From assembly GCA_007127235.1 (NCBI GenBank), contig SKZT01000192.1, positions 1 through 52,854 of the forward strand: 52,854 nucleotides of DNA, in the 5' to 3' direction. The position numbers and the translations under genes are program-made. The notes under the pieces were generated by a model. That model was given only the letters and a program-made list of their open reading frames with translations, had not been told where the DNA came from and ran no database searches. Shown one piece after another: positions 7,531 to 49,900 of the stretch (position 1 is its first letter; every line of letters starts with the position of its first letter). The stretch is from Desulfobacteraceae bacterium. Lineage in GTDB: Bacteria; Desulfobacterota; Desulfobacteria; Desulfobacterales; SKZT01.

Positions 7531-7585
7531 TATTGGTGTGGATTCGGATTTCACGTAAACAGTTGACTTGCTTGTACTAACTGCT

Positions 7586-7609
7586 GCAAAAGCAAAGCTT
7601 TTGCACTCC
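7586..7609 (-). repeat. Hairpin repeat family copy (minus orientation, one loop mismatch)
   Basis: The reverse complement reads GGAGTGCAAAAGCTTTGCTTTTGC, about 30 nt downstream of the kinase stop. With the copy at 7411 it forms an inverted pair bracketing about 200 nt. Confidence 0.7.
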
Positions 7610-11345: not shown

Positions 11346-12447
11346 AGACTTTTGCAGCGCTTCTATCCAACATTGCCGGCAACCCCCCCCTCTCCGCGGG
11401 GACAAATCCAAGGGAATTTTTCCAGACATGTTCATCCTCCATGCAAAAATACAAGCAAACATCCGGTGCAATTTTTCTGATATGTTCAATAATCGCCTTA
11501 TAGAAACTTATTCTCAAAGGTTTGAAATATCGCATTTTGCCATCCAGGCCTCTGATGAATTCCCCATAGACAATTTTAGAGTGTGGAAATCGTTCTTGTA
11601 TGGTTGGTTTCAACGATGGCATAAAGCGAAAGGTCCCAAGGCTGATCCAGGGAATATTTTCGGGGTTGATATATGAAAATAGTTTTGTAATCACATCTTT
11701 GTAGTCGTTTTCACATCCGGGATAAAGCACCATGGGATCAAAATGAAAGGCTACGGGATATCCCCATTGCTGGCATTTTTGGGCGGCATATAGTCGGGAC
11801 TTGAGAGATGCGGTTCCGCGTTCCTGTGTGCGGATAATTTCTTGGGTGTTCAAAGACCAGGCCAATATGGTTTTTCGGTTGTGTTTCAGGCTTCGGAAGT
11901 TTTCAATGGCGGTGGTTTTTGTTTTAAGCTCCAACACGCAATGGTGCTGATTTGAAAAAATCGGAACCAGCAATTGGGACAAGTCGGTCCCATATTCCCA
12001 GATGAGACTGTCGGTGAATTCGCCTGTTCCGATTCTCAAAAGGATCTTTTGTTCAAGTGCCATGTGAAGTTCTTCAATCATGTCATGGTGATTCACAAAA
12101 AACTGTAATAGCGGTGGATGAAAATAAGACTGTAGTATGCAATAAGAGCAATCCATGGTGCAGAAAGTGCCCACATGAAGAATCTGATAATCACAGCAGA
12201 TATAGTTTTGAGTCCCGGGGCATTTTTTTAAAAATGCACCTTTGTTCCGGGTCAGATAAAGTGTTTTCTTCCCTGCTTTGACCGGGTCGGCATGGGTATT
12301 GATTTTTTCATAAAGGGTTTGGACATCATGGATTATCTCAGCGGAGCATTGGATCCGGTCACATATGGATTTTACCTGTGATAAATGCTGTACAGAGCTG
12401 TCGATATATATTTGTTCGATGGGCATGCTTTTATTGTGATCACCCAA
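11332..12447 (-). CDS. Spore photoproduct lyase-like radical SAM protein (SplB family)
   Basis: 371 aa with the radical SAM cluster motif CTMDCSYC in the context HVGTFCTMDCSYCILQSYF. Overall length and layout resemble SplB-family proteins. The start is TTG 12447 (8-nt overlap with the upstream gene) or ATG 12426. Confidence 0.7.
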   Translation of the reverse strand: MGDHNKSMPIEQIYIDSSVQHLSQVKSICDRIQCSAEIIHDVQTLYEKINTHADPVKAGKKTLYLTRNKGAFLKKCPGTQNYICCDYQILHVGTFCTMDCSYCILQSYFHPPLLQFFVNHHDMIEELHMALEQKILLRIGTGEFTDSLIWEYGTDLSQLLVPIFSNQHHCVLELKTKTTAIENFRSLKHNRKTILAWSLNTQEIIRTQERGTASLKSRLYAAQKCQQWGYPVAFHFDPMVLYPGCENDYKDVITKLFSYINPENIPWISLGTFRFMPSLKPTIQERFPHSKIVYGEFIRGLDGKMRYFKPLRISFYKAIIEHIRKIAPDVCLYFCMEDEHVWKNSLGFVPAERGGLPAMLDRSAAKVCELA

Positions 12448-14770: not shown

Positions 14771-14799
14771 AGAAACTCCTTAATGTTCCACTTACCTGA

Positions 14800-22502: not shown

Positions 22503-22613
22503 GGAGTGCAAAAGCTGTGCTTTTGCGGTCGGACCGTGAACGCTGTGCTTTGGCAATCGGAGTGCGAACGCTGTGCTTTCGCAAAAAATGCAAAAGCACA
22601 GCTTTTGCACTCC
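22503..22613. repeat. Cluster of four hairpin repeat units: three direct at 28-nt spacing (22503, 22531 degenerate, 22559) plus one inverted (22590-22613)
   Basis: GGAGTGCAAAAGCTGTGCTTTTGC / GGACCGTGAACGCTGTGCTTTGGC / GGAGTGCGAACGCTGTGCTTTCGC, then GCAAAAGCACAGCTTTTGCACTCC. The outer units are perfect inverted copies. On the minus strand the last unit is followed by ATTTTTT, so it can serve as the terminator of the purC/ParB-like transcript. Confidence 0.8.
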
Positions 22614-27998: not shown

Positions 27999-29819
27999 CT
28001 ATATGTTTCCCCTCATTGCTTTATATAAAGCCCCTGCGGCTGTTCTGGTAATACCGGGGACTTCAAGAAGTTGGTCAAGGGAAGCTTCCCGGATTTTTGA
28101 GATACTTCCGAAATATTTCATCAATGCCTCTTTTCTTTTTTTTCCGATTCCGGGTATGTCATCCAGTATGGAATGAAGTGTGCTTTTTTTACGCTGTTTA
28201 CGATGAAATGTAATGGCAAAGCGGTGGGCTTCATCCCTGATGCGCTGAAGAAACAGCAGTTGATCTCCCGATACGTTCATGGGATTGACGCGTCCTGGAA
28301 CGTATATTTTGTCTTGTGTTTCTCCACGACTTGTATCTTTTTTTGAAATCCCGATTACATAAAACTTTCCGGCAAGGCCCAGATCCTTTAACACTGACAC
28401 GGCGATATTCAGATGTCCCTTGCCGCCGTCCACCATGAGCAGATCCGGCAATGTATCCGCTCTTTCACCTTTTTTGCCATAGCGTCTTTTCAAGGCTTCC
28501 TGCATATAAGCATAATCATTGGGTTCTGTGACGCTTTTAATTTTGAATTTTCGGTAGGCGGACTTTTTGGGTTTTGCGTTTTCAAAAACAACCATCGCGG
28601 AAACGGGTTCCGATCCGGAAATGTTTGAGTTATCAAAGCACTCTATGCGCGCAGGTGGCTTGTCCATGCGGAGTGATTTTTGAAGATATTCAATTATTTT
28701 GCTGGCCGAATAGACAGAGGCCATGAATTCTTCCAAAGCACTTTCCGCGTTCTGAACAGCCATTTCCATGAGACGCGCTTTTTCGCCTCTCTGGGGATAA
28801 AAGATATGGACCTTTTGCTTTTTAAGGCTTTCCAGCCAGACTTCCAGGAGCGGAATTTCTTCGGTGTTGAAAGGAAGCAGAATTTCACCGGGGATAAAAT
28901 GGGAGGTTTCATAGTGTTGTTTAATAAAGGCTTCCAAAATTTCTACCCTGGTGGCCAGTTTGTCTGAAAAATCGTAATTATGGGAGCCTATGAGAAATCC
29001 GGAGCGAATCATCAGCTTGGTAATCATGAAAAGTCCGTGTTTGCCTGCAACAGCAAGGACATCCCGGTCAATAAAGTCAGTGGTGACGGTCACCTGTTTT
29101 TCCAGGGTCGTTTGGAGAGCAAACATTTTATCCCTGAGCCTGGCCGCCTTTTCAAACTCCTGAGAGGCTGCGGCTTTTTGCATATCCTTTTTAATGTCAT
29201 AAATCAGCTCAGGGGTTCGACCCTTTAGAAAAAGTATGACTTCCTTAACTATTTGATGATAATCCTGAGGCTTAACCTCCATGCAGCAAGGTGCGGTGCA
29301 TCCTTCGATCTGGCAATGAAGGCAAGGCCGGGTTCTGGGTTTGACTTTTTTAGAACGGCATTTTCTGAGGCGAAATGTTTTATGGATAAATTTAAGGGTT
29401 TGCCGAACAGCGCCCGGGGAAGCATAAGGACCGAAATAAAGCGCACCGTCATTTTGAATTTTGCGAACAATGGTAAGGTTGGGATAATCGTCTTTTACAT
29501 CGAGCTTTAAGACAGGATATCGTTTGTCATCTTTTAACAGGACATTGTATCGGGGCCGATAACGCTTGATAAGTGTCGATTCCAGAATCAGAGCTTCTTT
29601 TTCGGTGGCCGTGATGATCGTATCAAAATCGGCGATTTGTTTGACCAAAACCCCGCTTTTCATGTCAAGCTGCAAAGGCCGGTTGAAGTAGGAAGCCAGT
29701 CGTTTTTTCAGATTCCTGGCTTTACCCACATAAATAACCTGACCCGTGTTGCTTTTCATCAGGTAAACACCGGGTGCGGTTGAAACTCTCGATAATTTTT
29801 CCAGGAGGGATTCGGCCAT
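27999..29819 (-). CDS. uvrC: Excinuclease ABC subunit C
   Basis: GIY-YIG N-terminus (PGVYLMKSNTGQVIYVGKARNLKKRL), a UVR domain, an Endo V-like domain and a C-terminal (HhH)2. ATG 29819 (MAESLL...) is preferred over TTG 29828. Confidence 0.9.
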   Translation of the reverse strand: MAESLLEKLSRVSTAPGVYLMKSNTGQVIYVGKARNLKKRLASYFNRPLQLDMKSGVLVKQIADFDTIITATEKEALILESTLIKRYRPRYNVLLKDDKRYPVLKLDVKDDYPNLTIVRKIQNDGALYFGPYASPGAVRQTLKFIHKTFRLRKCRSKKVKPRTRPCLHCQIEGCTAPCCMEVKPQDYHQIVKEVILFLKGRTPELIYDIKKDMQKAAASQEFEKAARLRDKMFALQTTLEKQVTVTTDFIDRDVLAVAGKHGLFMITKLMIRSGFLIGSHNYDFSDKLATRVEILEAFIKQHYETSHFIPGEILLPFNTEEIPLLEVWLESLKKQKVHIFYPQRGEKARLMEMAVQNAESALEEFMASVYSASKIIEYLQKSLRMDKPPARIECFDNSNISGSEPVSAMVVFENAKPKKSAYRKFKIKSVTEPNDYAYMQEALKRRYGKKGERADTLPDLLMVDGGKGHLNIAVSVLKDLGLAGKFYVIGISKKDTSRGETQDKIYVPGRVNPMNVSGDQLLFLQRIRDEAHRFAITFHRKQRKKSTLHSILDDIPGIGKKRKEALMKYFGSISKIREASLDQLLEVPGITRTAAGALYKAMRGNI

Positions 29820-29828
29820 GCCGGACAA

Positions 29829-31832
29829 TTAAAATTCAAAAAGCATGATTTTTTTTAATACTTTGATCTGGTCCCGAAGTTCTGCGGCTTTTTCAAATTC
29901 CATTAATTTTGCAGCCTCGGCCATTTCTTTTTCCAAATTTTCCACAGCAGCTTCAATATTCCGGGAACCGCCATAGGCTGAGACAGACTCCGCCACTTTT
30001 GGTGCAGGATCTGAAAGCATCTCGTTTTTGTACTCGAAAACATGTTTGATTTCTTTGTGGATGCTTTCCGGAGTAATGTTATGGGCCTTGTTGTAGGCCT
30101 CCTGGATTTTTCGCCTTCTGTGGGTCTCATCAATGGCGAATTTCATGGATGCTGTAACCACCTCGGCGTACATGATAACTTTTCCGTCAACATTTCTGGC
30201 GGCACGTCCGCAGGTTTGAACCAGGGATCTGGCAGACCTTAAAAAACCTTCCTTATCCGCATCCAAGATGGCCACCAGGGAGACCTCGGGAATATCGAGT
30301 CCTTCCCTTAAAAGATTGATCCCTACCAGAACGTCAAAAGTGCCTGACCTCAGCTCCTGAATAATATCCATTCTTTCGAGGGTGCTGATGTCCGAGTGAA
30401 GATACCTGACTCGGATTCCCATATCCGAGTAGTACTCAGTTAAATCCTCAGCCATCCGCTTGGTCAGGGTGGTAACCAGCACCCTTTGGTTTTTTTTGAC
30501 CCGTGTCAGCACTTCGTCGTAAAGGTCATCAACCTGATGCTTTGCACTCCTGACCTCTATTTCCGGATCTAAAAGCCCTGTAGGACGTACGATTTGTTCC
30601 ACAAGAGCATCGGCGCCCATTTGCATTTCGTAATCCGCCGGTGTGGCGGAAACATAAATGATCTGGCGGATTCTTTGGGTGAATTCCTCGAAATTGAGAG
30701 GGCGGTTGTCAAGAGCCGACGGCAGTCTGAAACCATAGTTGACCAGGGTTTCTTTTCGTGACCGGTCTCCGCGATACATCCCTCGTATCTGTGGAATACC
30801 AATATGGCTTTCATCGGCAAAAAGCATATAATCTTCGGGAAAATAATCCAAAAGAGTTGGTGGTGGTGAGCCGGGATTTCTACCGGTCAGATGGCGGGAA
30901 TAGTTTTCTATTCCGTTGCAATAGCCGAGTTCGAGCATCATTTCTATATCGAAATTTGTGCGCTCTTCCAGCCGCTGAGCTTCAATCAGTTTGTTTTCGG
31001 CCCTGAAATAATCGATTCGCTTTTTCACTTCCGTTTTTATGGAATCAATGGCACTTTGCAGGGTCTGTTTTGTGGTCACGTAATGACTGGCCGGGTAAAT
31101 ATCCACTTCAAACAGGCGTTTTCCGGCAGTGCCCCGTAAGGGGTCAATCTCGTATATACTTTCAATTTCATCCCCAAAAAAGTCAATCCGAACAGCTTTG
31201 TCTTCCTCATAAGCAGGATAAATTTCCACCCGGTCCCCCCTGACCCGGAACACACCCCTGTGAAAATCCATATCGTTTCGGTCATACTGTATGGACACCA
31301 GGTTCATCAGCAAACGATCCCGGGACAATTCCATTTCCTCCTCCAGGTGAATACGCATGGACAGGTAGTCTTCGGGTGCCCCAAGCCCGAAAATGCATGA
31401 AACACTGGCGACCACCACAACATCTCTTCGGGAAAGAACCGAACGGGTTGCCGAATGGCGCATTTTGTCAATCATGTCATTGATGGAAGAATCTTTCTGA
31501 ATATAGGTGTCCGTGGTGGGAATGTAGGCCTCGGGCTGGTAGTAATCGTAATAGGAAACAAAATATTCTACAGCGTTTTCAGGAAAAAAGTATTTGAACT
31601 CATTGAAAAGCTGAGCAGCAAGGGTTTTGTTCGGGGCAATAATAAGAGTCGGCCTGTTAAGCCTTGCGATTACATGGGCCATGGTAAAAGTCTTACCCGA
31701 ACCGGTAACCCCCAAAAGTACATTGTGGCGTTTTCCGTACAAGAGATTTTCGCAAATTCGGTCGATGGCTTGGGGCTGGTCACCGGTTGGTTTATAATGG
31801 GATTTGAGTTTGAAGGAGGCTTTTTTAGTCAT
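29829..31832 (-). CDS. uvrB: Excinuclease ABC subunit B
   Basis: 667 aa with Walker A ([10 protein letters not shown]), DESH, helicase motifs, and a C-terminal UVR domain ([12 protein letters not shown]). Confidence 0.95.
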
Positions 31833-33267
31833 TATATTTCCACACGGTGCCTTCAGAACGATCTTCCAGAATAATGTTGAGTTCTAAAAGCTCATCTCTG
31901 ATTCTGTCGGCTTCAGCCCAGTTTTTGGCTGCTCTGGCCTGGGTTCTTTCACGAATTTTTACTTCAATCCAGCCAGGATCGATGGATTCTTTCCGGAGCC
32001 CTGCCCTTCGCTTCTGATCAAAATAACTTTGGGGAGATTGCCTGAAAATACCAAGAATACTTCCGATACTCAGTACATCACTGTAACCGTTTCTAACGCT
32101 CAGTGCAATTTGATCGGATACCTGATCACCTGAAGCATCCAGCATGCGGTTTAAATCTCGCACAGTGGAAAATAATATACCGAGTCCCTGGGCGGTGTTG
32201 AAGTCGTCACCCATGGCTTCACAAAATTGCCGCCAAAGCTCTCCGTGAGAGGAAAGCTTTGTTTCGGAAGGTATACCAAATTTTCTGTCCACCCTTTCCA
32301 GGAACGTGTATACCCTGTCAAGAGCTCCGGAAGCTTCTTCCATGGCTTTTTCATTAAAATCGATGGGGCTTCGGTAATGATTTGACAAAAGAAACAACCT
32401 TACGATTTCAGGATGATAGGCTTTCAGAATATCTCTGATCAAAAGAAAATTGCCCAATGATTTGGACATCTTTTCCTGGTTGATATTCACAAAGCCGTTA
32501 TGAACCCAATATTTAACAAATTGTTTACCGAAAGCCGCCTCGGACTGGGCAATTTCATTTTCGTGGTGAGGAAAAACCAGATCTTTGCCACCACCATGAA
32601 TATCGATGGTTTCACCTAAAAGACCGCTGCTCATGGCTGTACACTCAATATGCCACCCGGGACGTCCTTTGCCCCAGGGGCTGTCCCAGGAAGGTTCTCC
32701 CGGCTTGGCGGTTTTCCATAATGCGAAATCATAAGGATTTTTCTTTCTTTCATCCACTGCCACCCGGGCCCCGGCCTCCATATCCTCCAGAATTCTTCTG
32801 GACAGTTTTCCGTAATCCGGGTAAGATTCCACCGAAAAGTAAACATCACCATCCACAGGATAAGCCATGTTTTTTCCTATGAGAAGTTGAATCACCCCGA
32901 TAATTTCCCGAATATACCCCGTAGCGCGGGGTTCCATCGTGGCCCGCTCAACATTCAGGGAATCCATGTCTTCATAAAATTCATGGATATATTTTTCAGC
33001 CAGTTCCGTGGCACTGATGCCCAGTTCGTTTGCACGATTGATAATCTTGTCATCAATATCGGTAAAATTGCGAACATATATCACCTCAAAGCCCTGACTT
33101 CGAAGAAATCGAACAATGACATCAAAAACCACTACCGATCTGGCATGCCCTACATGACATGAATCATAAACAGTAGGACCACAGACGTACATTCGCACTT
33201 TTTGAGGTTCAATGGTTTCAAAATTTTCTTTTTGTTTGGTCAGAGTGTTGTAGATTTTAATTTTCAT
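31825..33267 (-). CDS. cysS: Cysteine--tRNA ligase
   Basis: 480 aa with HIGH-type (CHVGHARS) and KMSKS motifs and an [11 protein letters not shown]-terminus. The 3' end overlaps the uvrB start by 8 nt. Confidence 0.95.
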
Positions 33268-33350
33268 AACTTATGTTATTCTCCTATGGATAGCCGGATG
33301 CCGGTTTTCACCATAAACAATCCATTTTCTAAGCCGTCCGATTATCCAAG

Positions 33351-33383
33351 AAACCCGTGCACGTGCTCGTGCACGGGTTTTTT
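33351..33383. terminator. Perfect 13-bp GC-rich hairpin AAACCCGTGCACG-TGCT-CGTGCACGGGTTT with flanking A/T runs, lying in the cysS 5' leader
   Basis: Read directly. The plus strand has TTTTTT after the stem. The minus (cysS-sense) strand has AAAAAA before and UUUCUU after it. It lies 84-116 nt upstream of the cysS ATG. Confidence 0.6.
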
Positions 33384-33494
33384 CAATGCCTACCTTGTTT
33401 TACAATAAAGGCAAAATAGTTCTTAATTGGTTTTTATCTTCTTCCCACATCCCGGTAAAATCAAATCTTCGTATTTTATCTCCAGCTTTTACTA

Positions 33495-33675
33495 CCGTTC
33501 ACGAGCACGAGCACGTGTACGTTCACGTGCACGAAACTTGGATATTGTGAAGTATGGCCCAGGTCATTTTCTTATGGATAACCAGGCGCCGGTTTAGGCT
33601 CGGAATAAATGTTTTACAATGTTGCCTGATACAAACCGTGCACGTGAACGTACTCGTGCACGTGCTCGTGCTCGG
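33495..33675. repeat. Imperfect 39-nt inverted repeat made of CGTGCA/CGAGCA/CGTGAA hexamers (arms 33495-33533 and 33636-33675)
   Basis: By manual alignment 35 of 39 positions are complementary, with a 102-nt spacer. The arms share 13 nt or more of identity or complementarity with the hairpin at 33351-33383. A second shared block occurs at 33285-33307 (TATGGATAGCCGGATGCCGGTTT) and 33573-33595 (TATGGATAACCAGGCGCCGGTTT), 288 nt apart. Confidence 0.75.
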
Positions 33676-33743
33676 TTTTTCCATTGCGCACCTTTTATCC
33701 ACAATATTGGAACGGTAATTATCAATAGCTATTAATCCCATCC

Positions 33744-34211
33744 CTATTCCATTAACACAATACACATCGCCCCAATCCCCTCCCCTTTTCCGATCATTCC
33801 CAATCCTTCGGTGGTGGTTGCTTTGATATTTATTCTTTCCGGTTCAATGTCAAGGGATTCGGCGATTTTTTCGACCATGGCTTTTCGGTATGGAGAAATT
33901 TTCGGCTGCTCGGCAAACAGGGTCATATCTGTATTGATGATGGAAAATCCCTTATCTCTGATCATCTTGTTGCATTTTTTCAACAGTTTGATGCTGTATA
34001 TGTCTTTGTAGGCCGGATCGGTGTCAGGAAACCAGAAACCGATATCTTTCAGGCCGGCGGCACCCAGGAGTGCATCACATACCGCATGCACCAAAACATC
34101 GGCGTCCGAATGTCCCTCGAGGCCTTTTTCAAAATCGATGGTAATGCCGCCCAGCACCAGCTTTTTTCCGGCAACCAAGCGGTGAACATCATAACCCATT
34201 CCGATTCGCAT
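33744..34211 (-). CDS. ispF: 2-C-methyl-D-erythritol 2,4-cyclodiphosphate synthase
   Basis: MRIGMGYDVHRL...GHSDADVLVHA...DIG... is typical of IspF. ATG 34211 lies 1 nt after the upstream Hsp70-like stop. The track start 34376 is inside that gene. Confidence 0.9.
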   Translation of the reverse strand: MRIGMGYDVHRLVAGKKLVLGGITIDFEKGLEGHSDADVLVHAVCDALLGAAGLKDIGFWFPDTDPAYKDIYSIKLLKKCNKMIRDKGFSIINTDMTLFAEQPKISPYRKAMVEKIAESLDIEPERINIKATTTEGLGMIGKGEGIGAMCIVLME

Positions 34212-34212
34212 T

Positions 34213-37026
34213 TCAGTTACCAATTTCCATAATAAGACCTGCAGGAAGAGATTCTCCGAAAATAGTGTTCTGTTCTTGTCTTTCCATGGAAACAATTTCT
34301 TTAAGATAGCGCTGATAAGGTTTAAAGAATTTATCCTGATCCATCCAATCAAGAATTCTTTGCACCAAAAGCTCATCTATATCCCGGATTCGATCTCCTG
34401 TTTTGCGGGCCATCTGGGCCAGGGCAATACCGACGGGTTTCGGGTTTTTCCATCTGATGGTTAAAAGCGTATCGATCCATCGGGAGACTTCTGCAGCGGG
34501 AATCACCCGGTCGGCGGGCCCATAGAGAAGGGATCTGGCGCCGAGTCTTGAAATGGACCAGAAATGAGGGCTTTTGGCGTTTTGAACAGAAATTTCCGAT
34601 AACAAGTGTTGCCCCCACCTGATTTTATCCTTCACATGAAGCATTTCCATATTGGCTATAGCCATCCAGATTTCTAAACGTTCCTGGGGACTTGTTTTGA
34701 TTCTGGGGCCTTTTCCGGGCATCATCACAGGAGTCAAATCCTGGCTGAATTGCCGCTGCTGTCCCGGCTTGAGTCCGCCGGCTGTTCTTCGCCAAAGAAT
34801 CCACCATTCACTGCGAACCTGAGCGTTCTTGGGAAATCGCATTCCTTCCTGATAGATTTTCCATAATTTGGCCATGCGCTGGGGATCAAAGCCCTCGGCA
34901 AACCCCGGACGCATGCAAAATCCCGTAAGATTCAGCCACCGGCTTTCATGAACCGTTGAAGTATTTTTCAACTTTCTGTGTTCCAAAAGGCAATCGGCAA
35001 GCTTTCGAATCAATCCCAGCGGCCATTTTTCTCTGGGCATTTCCACGACATCGGCAACTTCCTTTGTCAGTGAATTTAAAGCAGTGGTATCGGTCTTGTT
35101 GGAAAATGCGTGTTGGATTTTTTTAAGGGCCTCGTTAACGACGGATTCATCAAAAATCTCGGAATCTGAAACTTCTGCAGGGGCTGCTTCATCCCGAAGC
35201 CGAAACTGCAGTTGCCATCGATGATTGCTGATCAGTGACCGGCACCAGACCGCAAGGGTTCCGATCTCCGTAAAATCGGCTTCGATTTGAACCGGTACCT
35301 TTTTTTGCATCCCTTTTTTACCGAACTTTATCACGGTTTGGAGGGGTGGAAGAGCAACCATGGTGTCGTCGATGGTCACAAGGTCTCCGCATCGATCTCC
35401 GGAACGATAACTGGAGCTGTAAACATTAAAAGTCACCGGCTGATTGGCCAAAACTTCAAATTGATATTCTCCCAGTTCAATATGGGTACCTTCATCCAAA
35501 CCTCTTTCCACAAGGCAAATGGCTTTACCGGTGTCAAAGGTTCCGGTATGCTCATCACGGGTGGATATGCCCAAGAAATATGCGCGGGCGCTTCCACAAC
35601 CTACACGAACACCTTTTCCGATTTTTACCAGGCCATAATAGGATGCCCCCAGTGCTACGGCAAGGTCAGGATTGGGATTTTCAAGAATTCTGGGTACTTC
35701 GGCATTGGTAATGCCAAACCAGTGACGGATAGCAGTCCTGATTCGCTCCTGGATAATTACCGGTTTCAGAGCACCCCCATTGAAAAGAATGAGATCCGGA
35801 GCCGGATTGTCCCGGTTTAGAAATTTTTGAACATCTTCCTTGTGCTGTTCCAGAAACCTTCCCAAATGGCGGGTAATGGCCGGTTCCGGTTCGTAGGGCA
35901 GCCCAAACTCGGTAATACCTGAGCGGGGCACCTTTTTTTGAACCTCCTCAGGAGCAGCCACAGGGAAAAAACCCTCCACAATGGTTTCCTCCACCTCTTT
36001 TTTGTTAATCTCCGCTGCAATGGTACCTGCGATCAGCTGACTGCCTTCACCCATAAGGGTAATTTTGTGTGACTTTTCATGTCCGCTCAGAATGGATTCT
36101 TTGGCTTGCCGGCATTGGTGACAAAGGGCTTTCCACCTATCGGTATGAAGCGACATTTTGCGATGGCTGAATTGCCCTTCTATTCGCCGGGCAAGGGCCA
36201 AATCCATATTGTCACCACCGAGAATAAGATGATCACCCACCGCGATACGTTCGAAACGGGGACTTCCTTCATGCTTCTGAAGGGTGATAAGGGTAAAATC
36301 GGAGGTGCCTCCGCCCACATCGCAAACCAGGATAAGTTCATTTGGACGAACGTAACGCCCCCATTGATCGCCGTGACCAATCAGCCAGCTATAAAAAGCT
36401 GCAAGAGGTTCCTCAAGCAGGGTTACATCACGCAACCCTGCCATACTGGCGGCTTCCACGGTAAGATCCCTGGCAACCTCATCAAAAGAGGCCGGTACGG
36501 TTACAGTCAACAACTGGTTTTCCAGAAAATCTTCATCTTCTTTGGCCATCTCGGCATTCCAGGTGTCCTTGATGTGTTCCAGGTAAGCTGCCGTGGCCTG
36601 TACGGGTGAAACCTTGTAAACCTCATCGCCTGATCCCCAAGGGAGAATCCTTGCTTTTCTGTCCACCTTTGAATGACACAGCCAGCTTTTGGCTGAAGAA
36701 ACCAGGCGTGCGGAAACTTTTGCGCCGTGATCCCTGGCAAAAGCACCCACAAAGTTTTGTTTGGCGCTTTTTTCGCTGTTCCAGGGAATTTTGACAGCTT
36801 CCGGGGAAATATCATACGTGCCGGGGATGTACAAAAATGACGGAAGTACATGGGATCGGGTGATTTCCCCCGGGCCGGTCAGTTGAGGGACCTTGAAAAT
36901 TCTGATTCGTTGTTTCCGGAAATCCTGGGTTAAATCCACATAAGAAACAGCAGAGTTCGTGGTCCCCAGGTCAATTCCGATAATGTATCGTTTATCCGGT
37001 TCCAATAGTGTCTCTCTCTCTGACAT
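34213..37026 (-). CDS. Non-canonical Hsp70-family ATPase with a long (~450 aa) helical C-terminal extension
   Basis: The actin/Hsp70 NBD motifs are present (IIGIDLGTTNSAVSYV, VCDVGGGTSDFTLI, GGDNMDLAL). The C-terminal half has no recognisable DnaK substrate-binding domain. The start is uncertain: ATG 37026 (35-nt overlap with the upstream gene), TTG 37008, or the track start 37080. Confidence 0.8.
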   Translation of the reverse strand: MSERETLLEPDKRYIIGIDLGTTNSAVSYVDLTQDFRKQRIRIFKVPQLTGPGEITRSHVLPSFLYIPGTYDISPEAVKIPWNSEKSAKQNFVGAFARDHGAKVSARLVSSAKSWLCHSKVDRKARILPWGSGDEVYKVSPVQATAAYLEHIKDTWNAEMAKEDEDFLENQLLTVTVPASFDEVARDLTVEAASMAGLRDVTLLEEPLAAFYSWLIGHGDQWGRYVRPNELILVCDVGGGTSDFTLITLQKHEGSPRFERIAVGDHLILGGDNMDLALARRIEGQFSHRKMSLHTDRWKALCHQCRQAKESILSGHEKSHKITLMGEGSQLIAGTIAAEINKKEVEETIVEGFFPVAAPEEVQKKVPRSGITEFGLPYEPEPAITRHLGRFLEQHKEDVQKFLNRDNPAPDLILFNGGALKPVIIQERIRTAIRHWFGITNAEVPRILENPNPDLAVALGASYYGLVKIGKGVRVGCGSARAYFLGISTRDEHTGTFDTGKAICLVERGLDEGTHIELGEYQFEVLANQPVTFNVYSSSYRSGDRCGDLVTIDDTMVALPPLQTVIKFGKKGMQKKVPVQIEADFTEIGTLAVWCRSLISNHRWQLQFRLRDEAAPAEVSDSEIFDESVVNEALKKIQHAFSNKTDTTALNSLTKEVADVVEMPREKWPLGLIRKLADCLLEHRKLKNTSTVHESRWLNLTGFCMRPGFAEGFDPQRMAKLWKIYQEGMRFPKNAQVRSEWWILWRRTAGGLKPGQQRQFSQDLTPVMMPGKGPRIKTSPQERLEIWMAIANMEMLHVKDKIRWGQHLLSEISVQNAKSPHFWSISRLGARSLLYGPADRVIPAAEVSRWIDTLLTIRWKNPKPVGIALAQMARKTGDRIRDIDELLVQRILDWMDQDKFFKPYQRYLKEIVSMERQEQNTIFGESLPAGLIMEIGN

Positions 37027-38821
37027 TGAATTCCAGTTTCCATCGGCGGCCGGTATCTTCAGAGACGCACCAGAGTTCAAGAGTGCCGATTTCAGTTACC
37101 TTGACTTCCAGATTAACAGGCACTACGGTTCCGTATTCGCCGTCCAGAGTGGTTTCCATAGTGGTGATTTTATCAATTTCACCCTCCCAGTCTTCCACCA
37201 CTGCGCCTACCGTGTCATGATGGCGTTTTGAAGAGCCCAGAAAATCAAAAGCTACCGGTTCTCCCACAACCAGTGCAAAATCCTGGCCGGTAAGGGTCTC
37301 ACCGGTACCTTCTTCCATTCCAAAAGATCCCACGCAGATGGCTTTCATGGGAGCGGGCATGCCCGGTACTGAGGGCATAGCTGCAGCAATACCAATATAG
37401 TAGGATTTATTGAGACCTCCCCGAATTCGTACTCCTTTTCCTTTACGTGCCAGTCCGAAATATGCGGCACCTTTGGCCACTGCGAGGTCGAAATCGAAAG
37501 TCTCGATCTCCCTTGGGCTTTCAAGACCATCGGGCGCAATCCAGGAATTTATAACTTCCATTATCCGTTTACGAACCAGGCCTGCTTTCATGATGCCGCC
37601 ATTATACAAAATAGCAGTGGGGGCAAAAGCTGTCTGTTCTGCTTCGGATGCCTCGCTTAAAAATTTGGCCAGATGATGGGTTACCGCCGGGTCAGACTCG
37701 TAAACAAGGCCCATTTCCCGGATTCCGGCTTTCTGGGGAGCCACGGGTCTATGACTTTTTTCACAGGGGGGGAAAAAACCTTCCAAAATCACCTGCTCGA
37801 CTGTTTGTCGAGGAAGTTCAGTTTTTATGGTTCCCCCGATAAGGCTGGTTCCGCGGCCGAGAATGGTCACCGGATAATTCTGACGGTCTTCCTGGGATAA
37901 GAGCTGCTCCTTGGCTGTACGGCAACTGTGCCAGAGTCCCCGCACCTGCCAGGAATCAAGCCGTGTTCCTTTTTCGGACATTTCACGGGCCACTGAATAA
38001 GCCAGGGCCAGATCCATGTTATCACCACCCACCAGGAGATGATCTCCAACCGCAATACGTTCCAAAGACAGCTCACCGTTGTTTTCTGTAACACTGATAA
38101 GGCTGAAATCCGTAGTGCCGCCCCCGATATCGCATACCAGGATTAGATCGCCTTTTTGAATCTGTTTTCGCCACTGGTCACCCCTGTGCTCAATCCAGGC
38201 ATAAAATGCCGCCTGGGGCTCTTCCAGCAAGGTAATATTTCTCAAGCCAGCCATTTCAGCCGCCTTGACCGTAAGATCTCTGGCCACAGCATCAAAGGAG
38301 GCCGGTACAGTAAGAAGAATCTCCTGGTTTTCCATCCGGAGGCTGTCGTCAATACCTTCCTCCCCCATGGCCATTTCATGGTTCCAGGCGTCCCGGATAT
38401 GGGCGATAATTGCCGAAGAAGCCTCTACCGGGGATTTTTTTTTCTCTTTGTCGGGGCATTCCCAGGGCAACACCGGCTTGTTTCTGTCTACCATGGTGTT
38501 GCATAGCCAGGATTTGGACGATGAAATTAGCCGTTGCGGAAGTTCTGCACCTCTATTACGGGCAAATTCACCCACCGCAAATTCCTGATCATCGTTCCAG
38601 GGCAAATCAAGCCCCTCCGAGGCAACATCATGTTTGCCGGGAATAAAAACAAATGAAGGCAAAACATCCCGTTTTTCAACGGTTCCTGATGCTACCAGCT
38701 GGGGTATTTCAAATACCTTAATTTCCGGCTTTTCACCAACAACCATATCCGCTTTTGTATAAGCCACAACGCTGTTGGTGGTTCCCAAATCAATTCCGAT
38801 AATATATTCTGGTTGATTCAT
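36992..38821 (-). CDS. Non-canonical Hsp70-family ATPase (609 aa)
   Basis: NBD motifs IIGIDLGTTNSVVAYT, VCDIGGGTTDFSLI, GGDNMDLAL, with a beta-rich C-terminal domain. It lacks the DnaK EEVD-type tail and the lid. Confidence 0.8.
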   Translation of the reverse strand: MNQPEYIIGIDLGTTNSVVAYTKADMVVGEKPEIKVFEIPQLVASGTVEKRDVLPSFVFIPGKHDVASEGLDLPWNDDQEFAVGEFARNRGAELPQRLISSSKSWLCNTMVDRNKPVLPWECPDKEKKKSPVEASSAIIAHIRDAWNHEMAMGEEGIDDSLRMENQEILLTVPASFDAVARDLTVKAAEMAGLRNITLLEEPQAAFYAWIEHRGDQWRKQIQKGDLILVCDIGGGTTDFSLISVTENNGELSLERIAVGDHLLVGGDNMDLALAYSVAREMSEKGTRLDSWQVRGLWHSCRTAKEQLLSQEDRQNYPVTILGRGTSLIGGTIKTELPRQTVEQVILEGFFPPCEKSHRPVAPQKAGIREMGLVYESDPAVTHHLAKFLSEASEAEQTAFAPTAILYNGGIMKAGLVRKRIMEVINSWIAPDGLESPREIETFDFDLAVAKGAAYFGLARKGKGVRIRGGLNKSYYIGIAAAMPSVPGMPAPMKAICVGSFGMEEGTGETLTGQDFALVVGEPVAFDFLGSSKRHHDTVGAVVEDWEGEIDKITTMETTLDGEYGTVVPVNLEVKVTEIGTLELWCVSEDTGRRWKLEFNVRERDTIGTG

Positions 38822-38864
38822 ATTAACAAATAATGGTTCTGAAATTTAAGTTATAAATTTTTAA

Positions 38865-38888
38865 GGAGTGCAAAAGCTGTGCTTTTGC
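38865..38888 (+). repeat. Hairpin repeat family copy GGAGTGCAAAAGCTGTGCTTTTGC followed by ATTTTTT
   Basis: Identical to the units at 22503-22526 and to the reverse complement of 22590-22613. It lies between two minus-strand genes. Confidence 0.8.
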
Positions 38889-38918
38889 ATTTTTTCACAA
38901 GATTACACCTAGTATTCT

Positions 38919-39683
38919 CTATACAACCTCCACCTCCGCCGGTGCAATAATTCTTGAATCCTGCCCCGATGAAAGCGTTGGAAGCTCCGGTTTTTCAGTC
39001 TGCCATCCTTTATGCCTTAAAATGCCTTTAAAAGGAGGATCCCCGGTGACATTTCCGGTCAACTTGATGGCATTGGGGTCAAAATCAGGTTCCACCACTA
39101 TTTCTTCACCTTCATTTTTGTCCACAACCGGTCGCAGACTCAGGTTTTTATCAACAACCTTTTTACAATTTTGATGAATATTTCTAACGGCTGCACCTAT
39201 TTGAGAATCTTCATACAAGTCGAGATTTTCGGAAAAAAAATCAAGCAGTCTTCCTTCCCGCTGCAAAAGTGAAATCAAATACAAATATATCCGCCGGTCC
39301 TGTTCCCTCTTTTCCTCTTTAATTTTTCGGGACTCTTCTGCGGGTCCTTTTTTCGTTTTAGGTGAAACAGTTTTTTGCTCTTTTTTAAAGAGCCCGCCAT
39401 TTATAATTCTAAGGAAAAACCACAAAACAATGGCAAAAACAAAGAAAAAAGCCCCTGATATCGGCAGAAAATAAGTTTCTGCCAGTTGCTTATACACGAC
39501 AATTTCGTTCACAAACTCCACCAGCTGAGATGGCGGGTCCGGTATTCGCTCAAGAGCCAAAATCATTTCTGATATCGCCTGATAGCCAACCGATAACAGT
39601 CCGTTAATTATACCGAACAAAAGCAGCATAAACATCAGTACTACAAAAAGAGTCCGCCGCGAGAATGCTTTTACCGGTTTCAT
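38919..39683 (-). CDS. Membrane protein with a DUF2760-like C-terminal domain (hypothetical)
   Basis: 254 aa with two N-terminal TM helices, a charged coiled linker (KEEKREQDRR), and a conserved-looking C-terminus (...GDPPFKGILRHKGWQ). The DUF2760 assignment is from memory of the family and its Hsp70 neighbourhood, and it needs HMM confirmation. Confidence 0.6.
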   Translation of the reverse strand: MKPVKAFSRRTLFVVLMFMLLLFGIINGLLSVGYQAISEMILALERIPDPPSQLVEFVNEIVVYKQLAETYFLPISGAFFFVFAIVLWFFLRIINGGLFKKEQKTVSPKTKKGPAEESRKIKEEKREQDRRIYLYLISLLQREGRLLDFFSENLDLYEDSQIGAAVRNIHQNCKKVVDKNLSLRPVVDKNEGEEIVVEPDFDPNAIKLTGNVTGDPPFKGILRHKGWQTEKPELPTLSSGQDSRIIAPAEVEVV

Positions 39684-39929
39684 GCATTTTCTCCTGAAAT
39701 TTTATTAGTCTTTAAACTTCTAAAAATAACATGTCAGAAACAAATTTGAAAGATTAAATTTATATCAAAATAATGCAAACGGTTTATCTTGTCGAATGCA
39801 AAATGCTGTGATATTTTCAAAGGAAATGCGGCAGGATTTGATAAACCCAATTTTACTGAGATAGCCGGAAACCTAAAACCGCAGAGGCCCTTTGATAACA
39901 TTGCCAGCCTCTTGGAAGTACAGGATAAA

Positions 39930-45225: not shown

Positions 45226-46878
45226 GTGCAAATGGCATCGATCAATCAGGTACCGCTTTGGTGGCTCAATGGGTCCAACTCCCCGGAGATGGGGGTGGAC
45301 GCCTTACAAAAGGCGTTATTGCGGTTGAGCCGGCCCTTTTTTTTGCTTGATATCGATGGTCAAATGGGTGTTGCTTACGATGGAGGGTTGAGTTTTGATT
45401 CCCGTGTTCCGGGAAAAAAAGAGACGCTGCCCCTGCTTGCCTATGTTCCTGCCGGTCATCCGAAAAACCTTGGGGATCCCCTTTTTAAACAAAGACATGG
45501 CCTGACCTACGCCTATGTCGCCGGGGCTATGGCCAACGGAATTACATCGGTGGAAATGGTCCGGGTTATGAGCGAGGCAGGGATGCTGGGGATGTTTGGT
45601 GCAGCCGGATTGTCAGTTTCCGGGATTGAAGATGCCGTGTTGGAGTTGCAGCGTTTGCTCAAAGGCCGCCCGTTTGGTTCCAATCTTATCCACAGTCCGA
45701 GCGATCCCGAGCACGAGATGGCAGTGGTCCGGCTCTACTTAAAGCACAATGTTCGCTTGGTAAGTGCGTCGGCTTATTTAAGCCTCACGCTTCCCCTTGT
45801 ATATTATCGTGTCAAGGGTATTTTTCGAAATCACGAGGGCAGCGTTGTCTGTCGCAATAAGGTGATCGGTAAGGTTTCCAGGATTGAGGTTGCCAAAAAA
45901 TTCATGTCGCCGCCGCCGGAAAAAATATTACAACAGCTGGTGGAGAAAAAATTGATTACCCGTGAAGAGGCTCTTTTAGCGGGGGATGTTCCCGTAGCGG
46001 ATGATATCACCGCGGAAGCCGACTCCGGCGGACACACTGACAATCAGCCGGCCATAGCCCTGTTGCCAACCATGCTGGCGCTTCGCGATGAGATGGTGTC
46101 GAAGTTCAACTATCAGACCCCTATTTGTGTTGGACTTGCCGGAGGCATTGCCACACCGGCATCCACCGCCGCAGCTTTTGCCATGGGGGCTGCCTATGTC
46201 CTTACCGGCTCAATAAACCAGTCATGCCTGGAAGCCGGTACATCCGAAAAGGTTCGGTGTATGCTGGCAGAGTCTTGCCAGGCCGATGTTACCATGGCCC
46301 CTGCCGCCGATATGTTCGAAATGGGTATCAAAGTGCAGGTATTAAAACGCGGCACCATGTTCGCCTTCAGGGCGGCAAAGCTCTACGAGCTTTACTCCCA
46401 ATATGATTCTATCGAGGATATCCCCCGGAAACAAAGGGACATGCTGGAGCGGGACTATTTCAAATGCGGTTTTGAACAGGTTTGGGAACAGACCAGAGCT
46501 TTTTTTCAGAAATGTGATCCAAGGCAGATGCTTCTGGCGGAGAAAGATCCCAAGCATAAAATGGCATTATTATTTCGATCCTATCTCGGACAATCATCCA
46601 GATGGGCTTCTTCGGGCGATCCCGATAGAATAATCGATTATCAGATATGGTGCGGGCCTTCCATGGGGGCTTTTAATGAATGGGTGAGAGGTTCATTTTT
46701 GGAAAAACCCGAAAACAGAAAAACGGTCACTTTAGCTATGAATTTGTTGTTCGGCGCTTCACTGGCCACGCGTGTCAACTGGATGAGATTTCAGGGAATA
46801 ACCATACCGAAAAGCATCGGACATTTTTCTCCTCGAACCGATGATGAGATAGCGATGCTTCTGTCAGATAATTTTTAA
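45226..46878 (+). CDS. pfaD: PfaD-family trans-acting enoyl reductase (2-nitropropane-dioxygenase-like) of PUFA/polyketide synthases
   Basis: 550 aa. The segments GAMANGITS, ITAEADSGGHTDN and the long C-terminal extension are typical of PfaD. The start is GTG 45226 or ATG 45232. Confidence 0.85.
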   Translation: MQMASINQVPLWWLNGSNSPEMGVDALQKALLRLSRPFFLLDIDGQMGVAYDGGLSFDSRVPGKKETLPLLAYVPAGHPKNLGDPLFKQRHGLTYAYVAGAMANGITSVEMVRVMSEAGMLGMFGAAGLSVSGIEDAVLELQRLLKGRPFGSNLIHSPSDPEHEMAVVRLYLKHNVRLVSASAYLSLTLPLVYYRVKGIFRNHEGSVVCRNKVIGKVSRIEVAKKFMSPPPEKILQQLVEKKLITREEALLAGDVPVADDITAEADSGGHTDNQPAIALLPTMLALRDEMVSKFNYQTPICVGLAGGIATPASTAAAFAMGAAYVLTGSINQSCLEAGTSEKVRCMLAESCQADVTMAPAADMFEMGIKVQVLKRGTMFAFRAAKLYELYSQYDSIEDIPRKQRDMLERDYFKCGFEQVWEQTRAFFQKCDPRQMLLAEKDPKHKMALLFRSYLGQSSRWASSGDPDRIIDYQIWCGPSMGAFNEWVRGSFLEKPENRKTVTLAMNLLFGASLATRVNWMRFQGITIPKSIGHFSPRTDDEIAMLLSDNF

Positions 46879-46906
46879 CAACCCATTATTATAAAGGTTT
46901 TTTACA

Positions 46907-49900
46907 ATGACCCGAAATGTTCCTGTGGCCATTATTGGCATGGGATGTTTTTTCCCGAAATCCCCGGGAATAAAACAATACTGGCGGCTTTTGTACAAAG
47001 GTGAGGATGCTGTTTCCGAAGTTCCTTTGACTCACTGGTCAACAAAGGACTATTTTGACGAAGATCCCAACACACCGGACCATGTTTACTGCAAGCGGGG
47101 TGGTTTTTTATCTCAAGTCTCTTTTGATCCCACTGAATTCGGTATTCCGCCGGCATCTCTGGAAGCAACAGATACTTCTCAACTTCTTGGCCTGATTGCA
47201 GCCAAAATGGCCCTTGAAAATGCCGGTTACCATGCAGATAAAGAATTTGACCGGTCAAAAGTTTCGGTTATACTGGGTGCCACCGGAACCCAGGAACTTG
47301 TGATTCCTTTGGGAGCCAGGCTGGGGCATCCCCATTGGCGAAAGGCACTGAACGCTTGTGGGATAACCGGCACGAAAGCCGATGAAATTGTCAAAAAAAT
47401 TTCCGAATCTTATGTGCCCTGGCAGGAAAATTCATTTCCGGGGTTACTGGGAAATGTTATTGCCGGAAGAATCTGCAACCGTTTGGACCTGGGGGGAACC
47501 AATTGTGCTGTGGATGCCGCCTGTGCAAGCTCCATGAGTGCCATCCATCTTGCTTTGCTTGAACTGGTATCCGAAAAAAGCGACATGGTGGTTACCGGAG
47601 GTATTGACACTCTCAATGACATTTTTATGCACATGTGCTTTGCAAAAACGCGCATCCTTTCTCCTACCGGAGATGCCCGTCCTTTTTCAAAAGATGCCGA
47701 TGGCACCGTTCTGGGTGAGGGTATCGGCATGATTGTACTGAAACGTCTTGTGGATGCCCAAAAACACGGTGACCGAATTTATGCGGTGATTAAAGGTATC
47801 GGATCATCCAGTGACGGAAAATCCCAAAGCATATACGCTCCCCGTTCCGAGGGTCAGATGCAGGCCCTGAATTCAGCCTACGTGCAGGCCGGGATTGACC
47901 CTTCCACGGTTGAACTTGTGGAGGCTCATGGCACGGGAACGCGGGTAGGAGATCTGGTCGAGTTTCAGGCCCTGTCAAGGGTGTTTCAAAAAGTTCCTGA
48001 AAACCATTGTGCACTGGGTTCGGTAAAATCAAACATCGGTCATACCAAAGCTGCCGCCGGTGCCGCAGGCATGATCAAGGCGGTTCTGGCACTTCATCAT
48101 AAGGTATTGCCCCCCACATTGAAAGCCGATACCCCTGACCCGGCACTCAATATTCATAAAAGCCCTTTTTACCTGAATACCCGAAGCCGACCCTGGCTAA
48201 AAAACGACAAACATCCTCGAAGAGCCGGGGTGAGCGCATTCGGATTTGGTGGAAGTAATTTTCATGTGGTCTTGGAAGAATACGAACCAAAAAAAACATC
48301 ACCTTCCTGGCAGGGTTCCGTTGATATTTTTGCACTCTCCTCTTTTGACCGGAACAATCTTGAAAAACAACTCCATGAAATAAAACAATCGGCAGAGAAA
48401 ACACACTCGTACAATGATATTGCCCATGCCGCCTTGAAAACCCGCAATACCTTTTCCCATGAGGATCCATACCGGCTTCTTTTTCCCATAAATCCTGAAT
48501 TATCTTTTCCGGAACAAGTGCAGAAGGTTCATCAGGAATTTTCACAAAACAGCACTGACCAGATACTAAACAGTCGGCGTATTTATTTGGGAGGTCCCGA
48601 CAAGGCCGGCAAGCTGGCTTTTGTGTTTCCAGGACAAGGCAGCCAGTATGTCCATATGGGATGCGATTTAATCTGCACATTCCCTGAGGCTCTGGAACGT
48701 CTGGAAAAGGCCGAACTTCAATTTAGAATGAATAATGATCTTTGGTCTCTTACGGATTATTTATATCCCAAAATGTATAATGATGATCAAAAAAGTCCGA
48801 AAAGCGAGCATGATCTTAAACTTCGCCAGACCCATATCGCCCAGCCCGCCATCGGTGCTGTCAGTTTTTGCCTTTCCAGGATATTAAACAGATTCAATGT
48901 TTCTCCGGAGGCTGTTTGCGGGCACAGCTTTGGGGAACTCACTGCCCTTTGGTCAGCAGGTCGCATTTCCGATGAAGATTTTTTGTTACTGAGTGTTCAC
49001 CGGGGCAGGCTCATGGCAAAAGCCTCTGACGGTCGCGGAGTAATGACAGCCGTCAAAGCTCATGCGGACAAACTTGAAAAATTAATCCAGCAGGAAAAAA
49101 TCGAGGTTATTGTCGCCAATAAAAACTCCAGGGAACAAACCGTTTTGTCCGGTCTGGAAAAACATATGGCCAAAGCGGAATCTATCTGCCGGGAAAAAGG
49201 CTTTGTTTTTCGCAGACTTCCGGTTTCGGCTGCTTTTCACACACCCATGATGAAAGATGCACGGGATGGTTTTTATAAGCTTCTTTCCCAAGTTAGTTTT
49301 AAAGATTCCCGAATTCCGATTTTTTCCAATACTACAGGGAAAACCTACCCGGATTGCCCAGAAGATACCCGCAATCTTTTGGCAAACCAGATAGTATTTC
49401 CTGTGGATTTTGTAGGTGAAATTGAAAGTATGGTTCAATTCGGTGCCCGTACTTTTCTTGAAGTGGGTCCCGGAAAGGTGCTCACGAATTTAATTCAAGC
49501 AATTTTAAAAGATTATCCTGACTGTCATGCTCTGTCCATTGATCATTCCAGTGGAAAGGCTGACGGTTGTACCGATCTTGCCCACAGCCTGTGTTACCTG
49601 GCCGCCATTGGTCATCCGGTCAAACTCGACCAATGGGAGCAGCCCCTGGAAAACAATGTTCGCAAGCAAAAAATGAGTGTGGCCATTTCCGGAGCCAATA
49701 TCCGGGTTGCATCAAAAAAAATAAAACAGAACGTAAAAAATGAAACACCCAAAGCCAGAGAAACGAATTCAGAACATTCAGCACATAATAATTCAGAACA
49801 TTCACCACATAATAAGGTGCCTGTACAAGATGTCTCTCCGGATCTGAAATTATCCGGTAAAATCAGTAACATGTCGAAACAATCCCCAAATAATCAGCAG

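Follow-up and report, generated by a model that had tools for sequence, protein, structure and literature searches.

Textbook Hsp70 function depends on J-proteins and exchange factors, and a locus in which two Hsp70-like genes stand with a membrane-protein gene, and with no gene for a J-protein or GrpE, raises the question of how such ATPases could be run. This question is posed by positions 34213-39683 of a DNA stretch of 52,854 nt (contig SKZT01000192.1 of assembly GCA_007127235.1; the whole stretch is called the window below), which belongs to a metagenome-assembled genome of the order Desulfobacterales from soda-lake sediment. We report here that the locus is one ordinary copy, both intact and expressed, of a conserved module composed of a DUF2760 protein and two Hsp70 paralogues (A and B), of which B ends in a DUF3731 domain; the module has been catalogued and is functionally unstudied. 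For its mode of action we favor, at a probability of roughly 45%, a self-contained membrane Hsp70-type machine, in which DUF2760 would tether and regulate B, DUF3731 would serve as an adaptor, A would pair with B, and no J-protein or GrpE would be needed.

Organization and inheritance of the module

A preliminary description, made from the letters of the window alone, had outlined three consecutive minus-strand genes for a two-transmembrane (TM) protein and two atypical Hsp70-like ATPases, and the coordinates of the open reading frames (ORFs) agree with it. The three co-directional minus-strand ORFs are the DUF2760 gene (38919-39683; 254 aa), gene A (36992-38821; 609 aa) and gene B (937 aa, ending at 34213). 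The frame of B gives 955 aa when counted from a TTG at 37080 and 937 aa from the ATG at 37026; genes A and B overlap, as had been described, by 35 nt with the latter start and by 14 nt if B begins at the TTG at 37005. An AGGAG stands 9 nt ahead of the ATG of the DUF2760 gene, and scans of the locus for Rfam families, tRNA genes, promoters and terminators gave nothing above chance.

The DUF2760 gene and gene B are inherited together. Matches to PF10816 (DUF2760) and to PF12531 (DUF3731) were found in the identical 21 of 41 genomes of the order, including one genome with two copies of each, and DUF3731 was also present in all eight further genomes having DUF2760, six of which lack a B gene beside the DUF2760 gene. 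Co-occurrence is thus perfect over 49 genomes, with unlinked genes in six, and neither DUF2760 nor DUF3731 was found in 14 control genomes, E. coli K-12 among them. DUF2760 and the DUF3731-bearing Hsp70 form an obligate pair. That the membrane protein would accompany the ATPases elsewhere, as had been expected, is borne out by this strict co-occurrence, which holds even for unlinked genes.

The position of A is different. Roughly 60 of the 100 or so Desulfobacterales loci have the order DUF2760-A-B, as does Burkholderia cenocepacia, and the window copy has the same order, on one strand, with a 97-nt spacer followed by the A/B overlap. At some loci DUF2760 occurs alone or with an A-type gene only, next to unrelated neighbors (a histidine kinase, DUF6178, glycogen phosphorylase and others), and in five genomes having a DUF2760-B dyad no A-type gene is present anywhere in the genome. 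The trio is therefore a unit, as first proposed, with respect to DUF2760 and B, which are obligate, but not with respect to A, which is not fixed. One genome of the same genus as the window has, in addition to the trio, a second copy of the dyad type (DUF2760 and B, on contig C143), whose B is 51% identical to that of the window. An apparent natural fusion of A and B (a 1515-aa open frame in one genome) was rejected as a stop-poor overlapping frame in a high-GC genome.

When the N-terminal regions of 65 A and 73 B proteins are placed in one tree, with the DnaK of this genome as the root, each paralogue forms a single clade (support 0.93 for A and 1.0 for B), the B. cenocepacia copy is basal in both clades, and the B sequences of dyads are scattered within the B clade. 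This topology, together with the dyads lacking A, indicates that the A/B duplication is old, that A has been lost repeatedly, and that the minimal module consists of DUF2760 and B. A is thus an old paralogue of the first 610 residues of B that has often been lost.

Hsp70 paralogues A and B

The preliminary description of an Hsp70-fold protein of 609 aa and another of about 938 aa was accurate (609 and 937 aa). Both match PF00012, in the nucleotide-binding domain (NBD) part only, with E-values of 2e-20 (A) and 4e-19 (B); the two scores are 68.6 and 72.7 bits, with a cut-off of 20.6 bits. In A, an NBD of about 460 aa, which carries insertions specific to the family, is joined by a short linker to a beta-sandwich, and the protein ends directly after the latter. 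A and B (aa 1-610) are 42% identical, and the sandwich of A is predicted from its 42% identity to B (aa 1-604). In the AlphaFold2 (AF2) model of B (mean predicted local distance difference test score, pLDDT, 75.8), the NBD (aa 1-470; 35617-37026, which also matches PF00012) is followed by a beta-sandwich (aa 480-607; 35206-35589), a disordered linker (aa 608-625) and about 14 helices (aa 627-925; 34252-35148), all on the minus strand; the C-terminal tail and the TGA stop codon (34215-34213) occupy 34213-34251.

The beta-sandwich of B is delineated by the AF2 strands and by Foldseek, whose alignments of the B model with DnaK, BiP, Ssb and Hsp110, all at full length, cover 620-790 columns (E 1e-22 to 1e-16), the first 610 or so residues being placed on the NBD and the beta part of the substrate-binding domain (SBD-beta) of DnaK and BiP. 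Because of this superposition on full-length DnaK and BiP, the model of B is taken to retain a DnaK-type substrate-binding beta domain. What is missing is the alpha-helical lid (SBD-alpha): A ends at the sandwich, and in B an 18-aa disordered linker leads into the DUF3731 domain. The C-terminal 450 aa or so of B had been regarded as helical and unlike the DnaK substrate-binding domain; the helical part of this claim stands for aa 627-925 but not for about aa 480-607, which are modeled as a DnaK-like sandwich, and the unlikeness is confined to the lid, which is absent or replaced by DUF3731.

The Pfam search that had been suggested for this C-terminal region identified it as DUF3731 (PF12531; 285 bits, E 8e-85, profile positions 1-248 of 248). 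Even at an E-value of 10, Pfam gave PF12531 alone for this domain, and a search of PDB sequences with the DUF3731 profile found no relative; the Foldseek list for whole B was filled by Hsp70s. The domain has many invariant Trp and Arg residues. Such a surface suggests one specific ligand, which favors another view of the module, namely that it has no general chaperone role but holds one partner and in this way regulates or remodels a single membrane-associated process, for instance control of the envelope or of polysaccharides, development, or the tolerance of oxidative stress. Atypical Hsp70s that work in this manner include StkA and Ssz1. Also in line with it, the module is an accessory one, DUF3731 being carried by 32 of 301 genomes of the phylum (25 of 199 genera) and by about half of the order. 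Against it stand the substrate-binding-type beta-sandwich, which is predicted in both paralogues, and the lack, at the surveyed loci, of any conserved fourth gene that would point to a pathway; we regard it as rather unlikely.

The nucleotide-binding machinery is complete in both paralogues. As had been noticed from the sequence, the phosphate-1, phosphate-2 and adenosine motifs are kept in A and B (IDLGTTNS and CD[IV]GGGT[TS]DF are present in both), together with the equivalents of D8, K70, E171, D194 and T199 in DnaK numbering. D8, T11, K70, R151 and E171 do not vary among the 65 A and 73 B sequences, and both proteins are probably active ATPases, as had been supposed. The insertions of the NBD include a stretch common to A and B, G-[IL]-x-E-x-G-L-x-Y-E-x-[DE]-P-A-[IV]-T-x-H-L, which is a candidate contact site, being conserved in both paralogues but of low confidence in the AF2 models.

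Are these ATPases driven by J-proteins encoded elsewhere? A and B could be specialized but conventional Hsp70s, served in trans by a J-domain protein and GrpE of the host, with DUF2760 as a client or passive anchor. The genome offers 10 J-domain hits and two GrpE genes, all outside the window's contig, and the intact catalytic machinery including R151, as well as the overall fold, which equals that of DnaK, would suit such an arrangement. The residues for contact with a J-domain do not. At R167, N170 and T173 of DnaK, which are reported to form the DnaJ contact site (Suh et al. 1998; PDB 5NRO), all 138 sequences are altered: R167 is replaced by T, V or I, N170 by E in every sequence, and T173 by Q in A and L in B. 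A and B have thus lost, family-wide, the DnaK residues that contact J-domains. The absence of a J-protein and GrpE from the trio, noted in the preliminary description, applies to the contig and equally to the roughly 100 surveyed loci, at none of which either gene was found beside the module. Both GrpE genes of the genome adjoin other Hsp70s, in operons of their own, and DUF2760 and DUF3731 are co-inherited even when unlinked, which also argues against a conventional, trans-driven Hsp70; we consider this explanation quite unlikely.

The other Hsp70s of the genome are encoded in a grpE-dnaK pair (contig C115), in a second complete Hsp70-GrpE-J operon (C28) and by two more genes. One of the latter (C77) encodes at least 501 aa and is cut by the contig end; the other (C205) encodes a very divergent Hsp70 of 544 aa, about the size of StkA (540 aa).

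The DUF2760 protein

The two-TM protein with a conserved soluble C-terminus was correctly recognized as DUF2760: PF10816 matches aa 133-252 (profile positions 5-124 of 124) with 168.7 bits and an E-value of 6e-50, the gathering score being 25 bits, and there are two hydrophobic segments, TM1 (aa 12-34; 39582-39650) and TM2 (aa 71-94; 39402-39473). A Lys-rich disordered linker (aa 103-114) and the DUF2760 domain itself (38928-39287) follow, all on the minus strand. In the AF2 model (pLDDT 75.5), two long hydrophobic helices are succeeded by the linker, a three-helix segment and a small beta domain. Since the N-terminus before TM1 and the linker after TM2 are basic, the positive-inside rule predicts that the DUF2760 domain is in the cytoplasm.

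The C-terminal motif IIAPAEVE[VIL] is invariant in DUF2760 proteins, the invariant residues including P248, A249, E250 and E252, and the domain end is the last or next-to-last residue of the protein in nearly all sequences among the best 150 of 1,760 representative clusters. No match to the model was found by Foldseek in PDB (nothing below E 1.9) and none to the protein by phmmer in PDB; a Pfam search at E-values up to 10 gave PF10816 alone, and no J-domain.

Comparison with known Hsp70 systems

The window trio is like hundreds of other copies of the PF10816 and PF12531 Hsp70 module in order, lengths and motifs, and each of its three proteins scores above the curated cut-offs. Members of the module are named in NCBI as “DUF2760 domain-containing protein” and “Hsp70 family protein”; the Pfam family PF12531 bears the description “DNA-K related protein”. 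Nothing is notable about the window copy in comparison with the others, apart from ispF, which abuts it at 1 nt in this genus, and a repetitive extragenic palindrome (REP)-like element between the first two genes. DUF2760 and DUF3731 are not mentioned in the literature that was searched, in keeping with the view that the module has no assigned function.

The module was also thought to be distinct from DnaK, HscA and YegD, and this is supported by NCBIfam scores far below the cut-offs: 88-90 bits for HscA (cut-off 620-708), 62-75 for DnaK (648-822) and 30-31 for YegD PRK11678 (331). A and B form their own long-branch clade in the tree. They share with the DnaK of the DnaK-DnaJ-GrpE system the actin-like NBD, the same catalytic residues, and the linker and beta-sandwich (Foldseek E 1e-22), but differ from it in having no alpha-helical lid, in an NBD that is about 85 aa longer with conserved insertions, in the replaced J-contact residues, and in the lack of a linked J-protein or GrpE.

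E. coli HscC (YbeW) is a specialized Hsp70 unrelated to heat shock, and its J-proteins DjlB and DjlC are anchored in the inner membrane. The likeness to the present module lies in a specialized Hsp70 with an inner-membrane-anchored partner protein; however, DUF2760 has no J-domain, and of the two Hsp70 paralogues at the present locus one ends in a helical domain.

Eukaryotes have sets of a short and a long Hsp70 with an anchored cofactor, such as Kar2-Lhs1-Sec63 in the endoplasmic reticulum, Ssa/Ssb-Sse1 (Hsp110), and the ribosome triad Ssb-Ssz1-Zuo1. By analogy only, the module resembles them in having two divergent Hsp70s, one of them much longer, and a third protein that would fix the location. 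Hsp110/Sse1 was matched by B in Foldseek (E 8e-17) with the highest query TM-score, 0.41, which is a likeness of fold only. Unlike in the eukaryotic sets, the extension of B is modeled as a separate solenoid-like domain after a disordered linker and not as an extended lid, A and B both keep the residues for hydrolysis, the short paralogue can be dispensed with in many lineages, and the anchored partner has no J-domain.

Among characterized bacterial proteins, MXAN_5323 of Myxococcus xanthus, a 925-aa Hsp70 classified as “cd10170”, is of interest for the single-partner view: mutants without it sporulated less and had less oxidative resistance, and the protein failed to rescue E. coli lacking functional dnaK (Pan et al. 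2021, PMC8265645). Its length and its description as a very divergent, non-essential Hsp70 fit the B type, and it is probably a B orthologue, the one candidate member of the module for which mutant phenotypes are on record. DUF3731, DUF2760 and a neighboring Hsp70 are not mentioned in that paper, so that its support for the regulator explanation holds only if the putative orthology is right. The StkA/StkB/StkC genes of M. xanthus were considered as the same module and rejected, because the genes after that of StkA (540 aa) encode an SCP2 protein and a protein of 89 aa.

Proposed mechanism

In the self-contained membrane machine that we favor, the DUF2760 protein would be inserted into the inner membrane by its two-helix hairpin, with the conserved C-terminal domain in the cytoplasm, and would recruit and probably regulate B. 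The helical DUF3731 domain of B would replace the lid as a docking or adaptor platform. A, where present, would pair with B as a short Hsp70 does with a long one of the Hsp110/Grp170 type, translation of the two genes being probably coupled, and the A-B pair would need neither a J-protein nor GrpE. Such an assembly would use ATP to handle proteins on the cytoplasmic side of the membrane.

Several points weigh against this mechanism. The proposed A-B pairing, the DUF2760-B contact and the task assigned to DUF3731 are drawn from gene order, co-occurrence and analogy, and the AF2 models, built from shallow alignments, reach medium confidence (pLDDT about 75). Since A is dispensable, the essential mechanism cannot be a heterodimer of the Hsp70/Hsp110 type. 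Nor do all phyla share the anchor of two TM segments: in B. cenocepacia, the DUF2760 protein carries a short hydrophobic helix at its N-terminus and a Pro/Ala linker in place of the two-TM hairpin. The roughly ten J-domain proteins of the genome could act in trans. A further idea, that IIAPAEVE is a free EEVD-like tail bound by DUF3731 as a tetratricopeptide repeat (TPR)-like clamp, is unsupported, since the AF2 model puts this motif in a strand of DUF2760's own beta domain.

With the odds somewhat against it, one may go further and propose that DUF2760 and the DUF3731-bearing Hsp70, with A as an optional member, are another self-contained kind of bacterial Hsp70 beside DnaK, HscA and HscC, free of J-protein and GrpE, in which DUF2760 would be a new class of membrane-bound cofactor and DUF3731 a solenoid adaptor in place of the lid. 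If true, this would widen the known ways of running the Hsp70 cycle, since the module, with some 1,760 sequence clusters, is present in two or more bacterial phyla, and would point to a membrane-proximal task in quality control or remodeling. The recognition of DUF2760 and B as the minimal unit identifies the two proteins to be reconstituted first; for the window itself, the gain is one of annotation, the locus being a typical copy of the module.

Distribution and genomic context

The module recurs in diverse bacteria, as had been believed, namely in Desulfobacterota and Betaproteobacteria. By tblastn, DUF3731 was found on secondary replicons of Burkholderia, Caballeronia, Bradyrhizobium and a Comamonadaceae strain. 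In B. cenocepacia the full trio (within the locus NZ_CP091013.1, 2698549-2717469) is on a 3.2-Mb secondary replicon that is listed as a plasmid in PLSDB, where the trio is unannotated; identities to the window proteins are 47% for A, 41% for the N-terminal part of B, 32% for DUF3731 and 39% for DUF2760.

The patchy distribution could be taken to suggest an anti-phage or conflict system with Hsp70-like ATPases as sensors or effectors. Hsp70s do occur in some GTPase-centered conflict systems (PMC7159879), and against the defense models of PADLOC-DB 2.0 we obtained a faint partial match to PDC-M61B (20-21 bits, E 2e-5, about 90 residues of the NBD) and no match of DUF2760. The PDC-M61B match, however, is one of generic NBD similarity, and a GTPase/tubulin/Hsp70 conflict system (PMC7159879), tried as a candidate, was rejected since its architecture differs. 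No effector, nuclease, GTPase, tubulin or mobile-element gene adjoins the locus, which lies between pgi and ispF-cysS-uvrBC, a housekeeping context that is preserved in several families of the order. Of the 10 plasmid records found by tblastn, most are replicons of megabase size and 6 are typed as non-mobilizable, and the trees of A and B set the single outside copy, that of B. cenocepacia, apart from the Desulfobacterales copies. A role in defense is very improbable on these grounds.

Downstream of the module are ispF, cysS, uvrB and uvrC. The ispF gene (33744-34211, minus strand), which encodes MEcPP (2-C-methyl-D-erythritol 2,4-cyclodiphosphate) synthase (PF02542, E 1e-66; TIGR00151), is a neighbor outside the module; its ATG at 34211 comes one base after the TGA of B at 34215-34213, so the 1-nt gap had been read correctly. 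Among module-bearing relatives, ispF is found downstream of B within 200 nt in 6 of 21 and within 5 kb in 8 of 21, and ispF-cysS-uvrB(-uvrC) is retained in genomes without the module. Because only some relatives have ispF near B and module-less genomes keep ispF-cysS-uvrB, the adjacency is a local, lineage-specific arrangement, tightest in this genus. The order ispF-cysS-uvrB-uvrC (27999-34211 in the window) is common across Desulfobacterales families, with or without an Hsp70 module upstream.

Upstream of the module and divergent from it is pgi, followed by genes for a DJ-1 protein, a thioesterase, an M24 peptidase and XerC/D, and by a pfa-type polyunsaturated-fatty-acid (PUFA) synthase; dxs, a paralogue of the EF-G gene and acs are located further upstream.

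Expression of the locus

The locus is transcribed. One soda-lake metatranscriptome contains 99% of the sampled sequence words of the locus. An RNA contig covering 31536-38889 spans A, B, ispF, the ispF-cysS spacer and cysS at a depth of 125, compared with 73 in DNA of the same sample, and another covering 38867-39804 spans the DUF2760 gene at a depth of 44.5, compared with 70 in DNA. There is a gap in the RNA at 39804-39854, in the divergent promoter region. Since RNA contigs, and not DNA contigs, break at intergenic regions elsewhere in the window, real RNA rather than DNA contamination is indicated. The coupling of the module to housekeeping ispF, which had been considered probable, is partly borne out: one RNA contig spans A, B and ispF, although such contigs cannot prove single transcripts, and the adjacency is lineage-specific rather than a feature of the module. 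No Rfam or tRNA match was found in the 476-nt ispF-cysS spacer (33268-33743).

The break of the RNA contigs at 38867-38889 is explained by the REP-like palindrome TGCAAAAGC-TGT-GCTTTTGCA at 38869-38889, in the 97-nt spacer that separates gene A from the DUF2760 gene, as this element has about 212 genomic copies. In the general form TGCAAAAGC-NNN-GCTTTTGCA, with up to 2 mismatches, these copies are distributed over the 3.27-Mb genome, and the word depth at the palindrome rises to about 10,000 in both DNA and RNA runs. The window has four copies, all intergenic (7585-7605, 22507-22527, 22589-22609 and 38869-38889). The palindrome often has GGAG and a T-run at its flanks, and in the plus orientation it resembles an intrinsic terminator; it also fragments the Logan unitigs of DNA and RNA runs.

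Other features of the window

The pfa-type polyunsaturated-fatty-acid/polyketide synthase cluster mentioned above occupies 45226-52854. It consists of a PfaD-like enoyl reductase gene (45226-46878) and a megasynthase gene that starts at 46907, has the domain order ketosynthase, acyltransferase, three acyl carrier proteins and ketoreductase (KS-AT-3xACP-KR), and continues beyond 52852, off the end of the window.

At 12440-14770 there is a gene with cyclic nucleotide monophosphate (cNMP)-binding, CBS and DUF294 nucleotidyltransferase domains, and beside it, at 14800-16962, a gene for a 720-aa protein with a C-terminal RNase T/DEDD exonuclease domain. Upstream of this DUF294/DEDD gene pair (12440-16962) are a sodium:solute symporter gene and acs.

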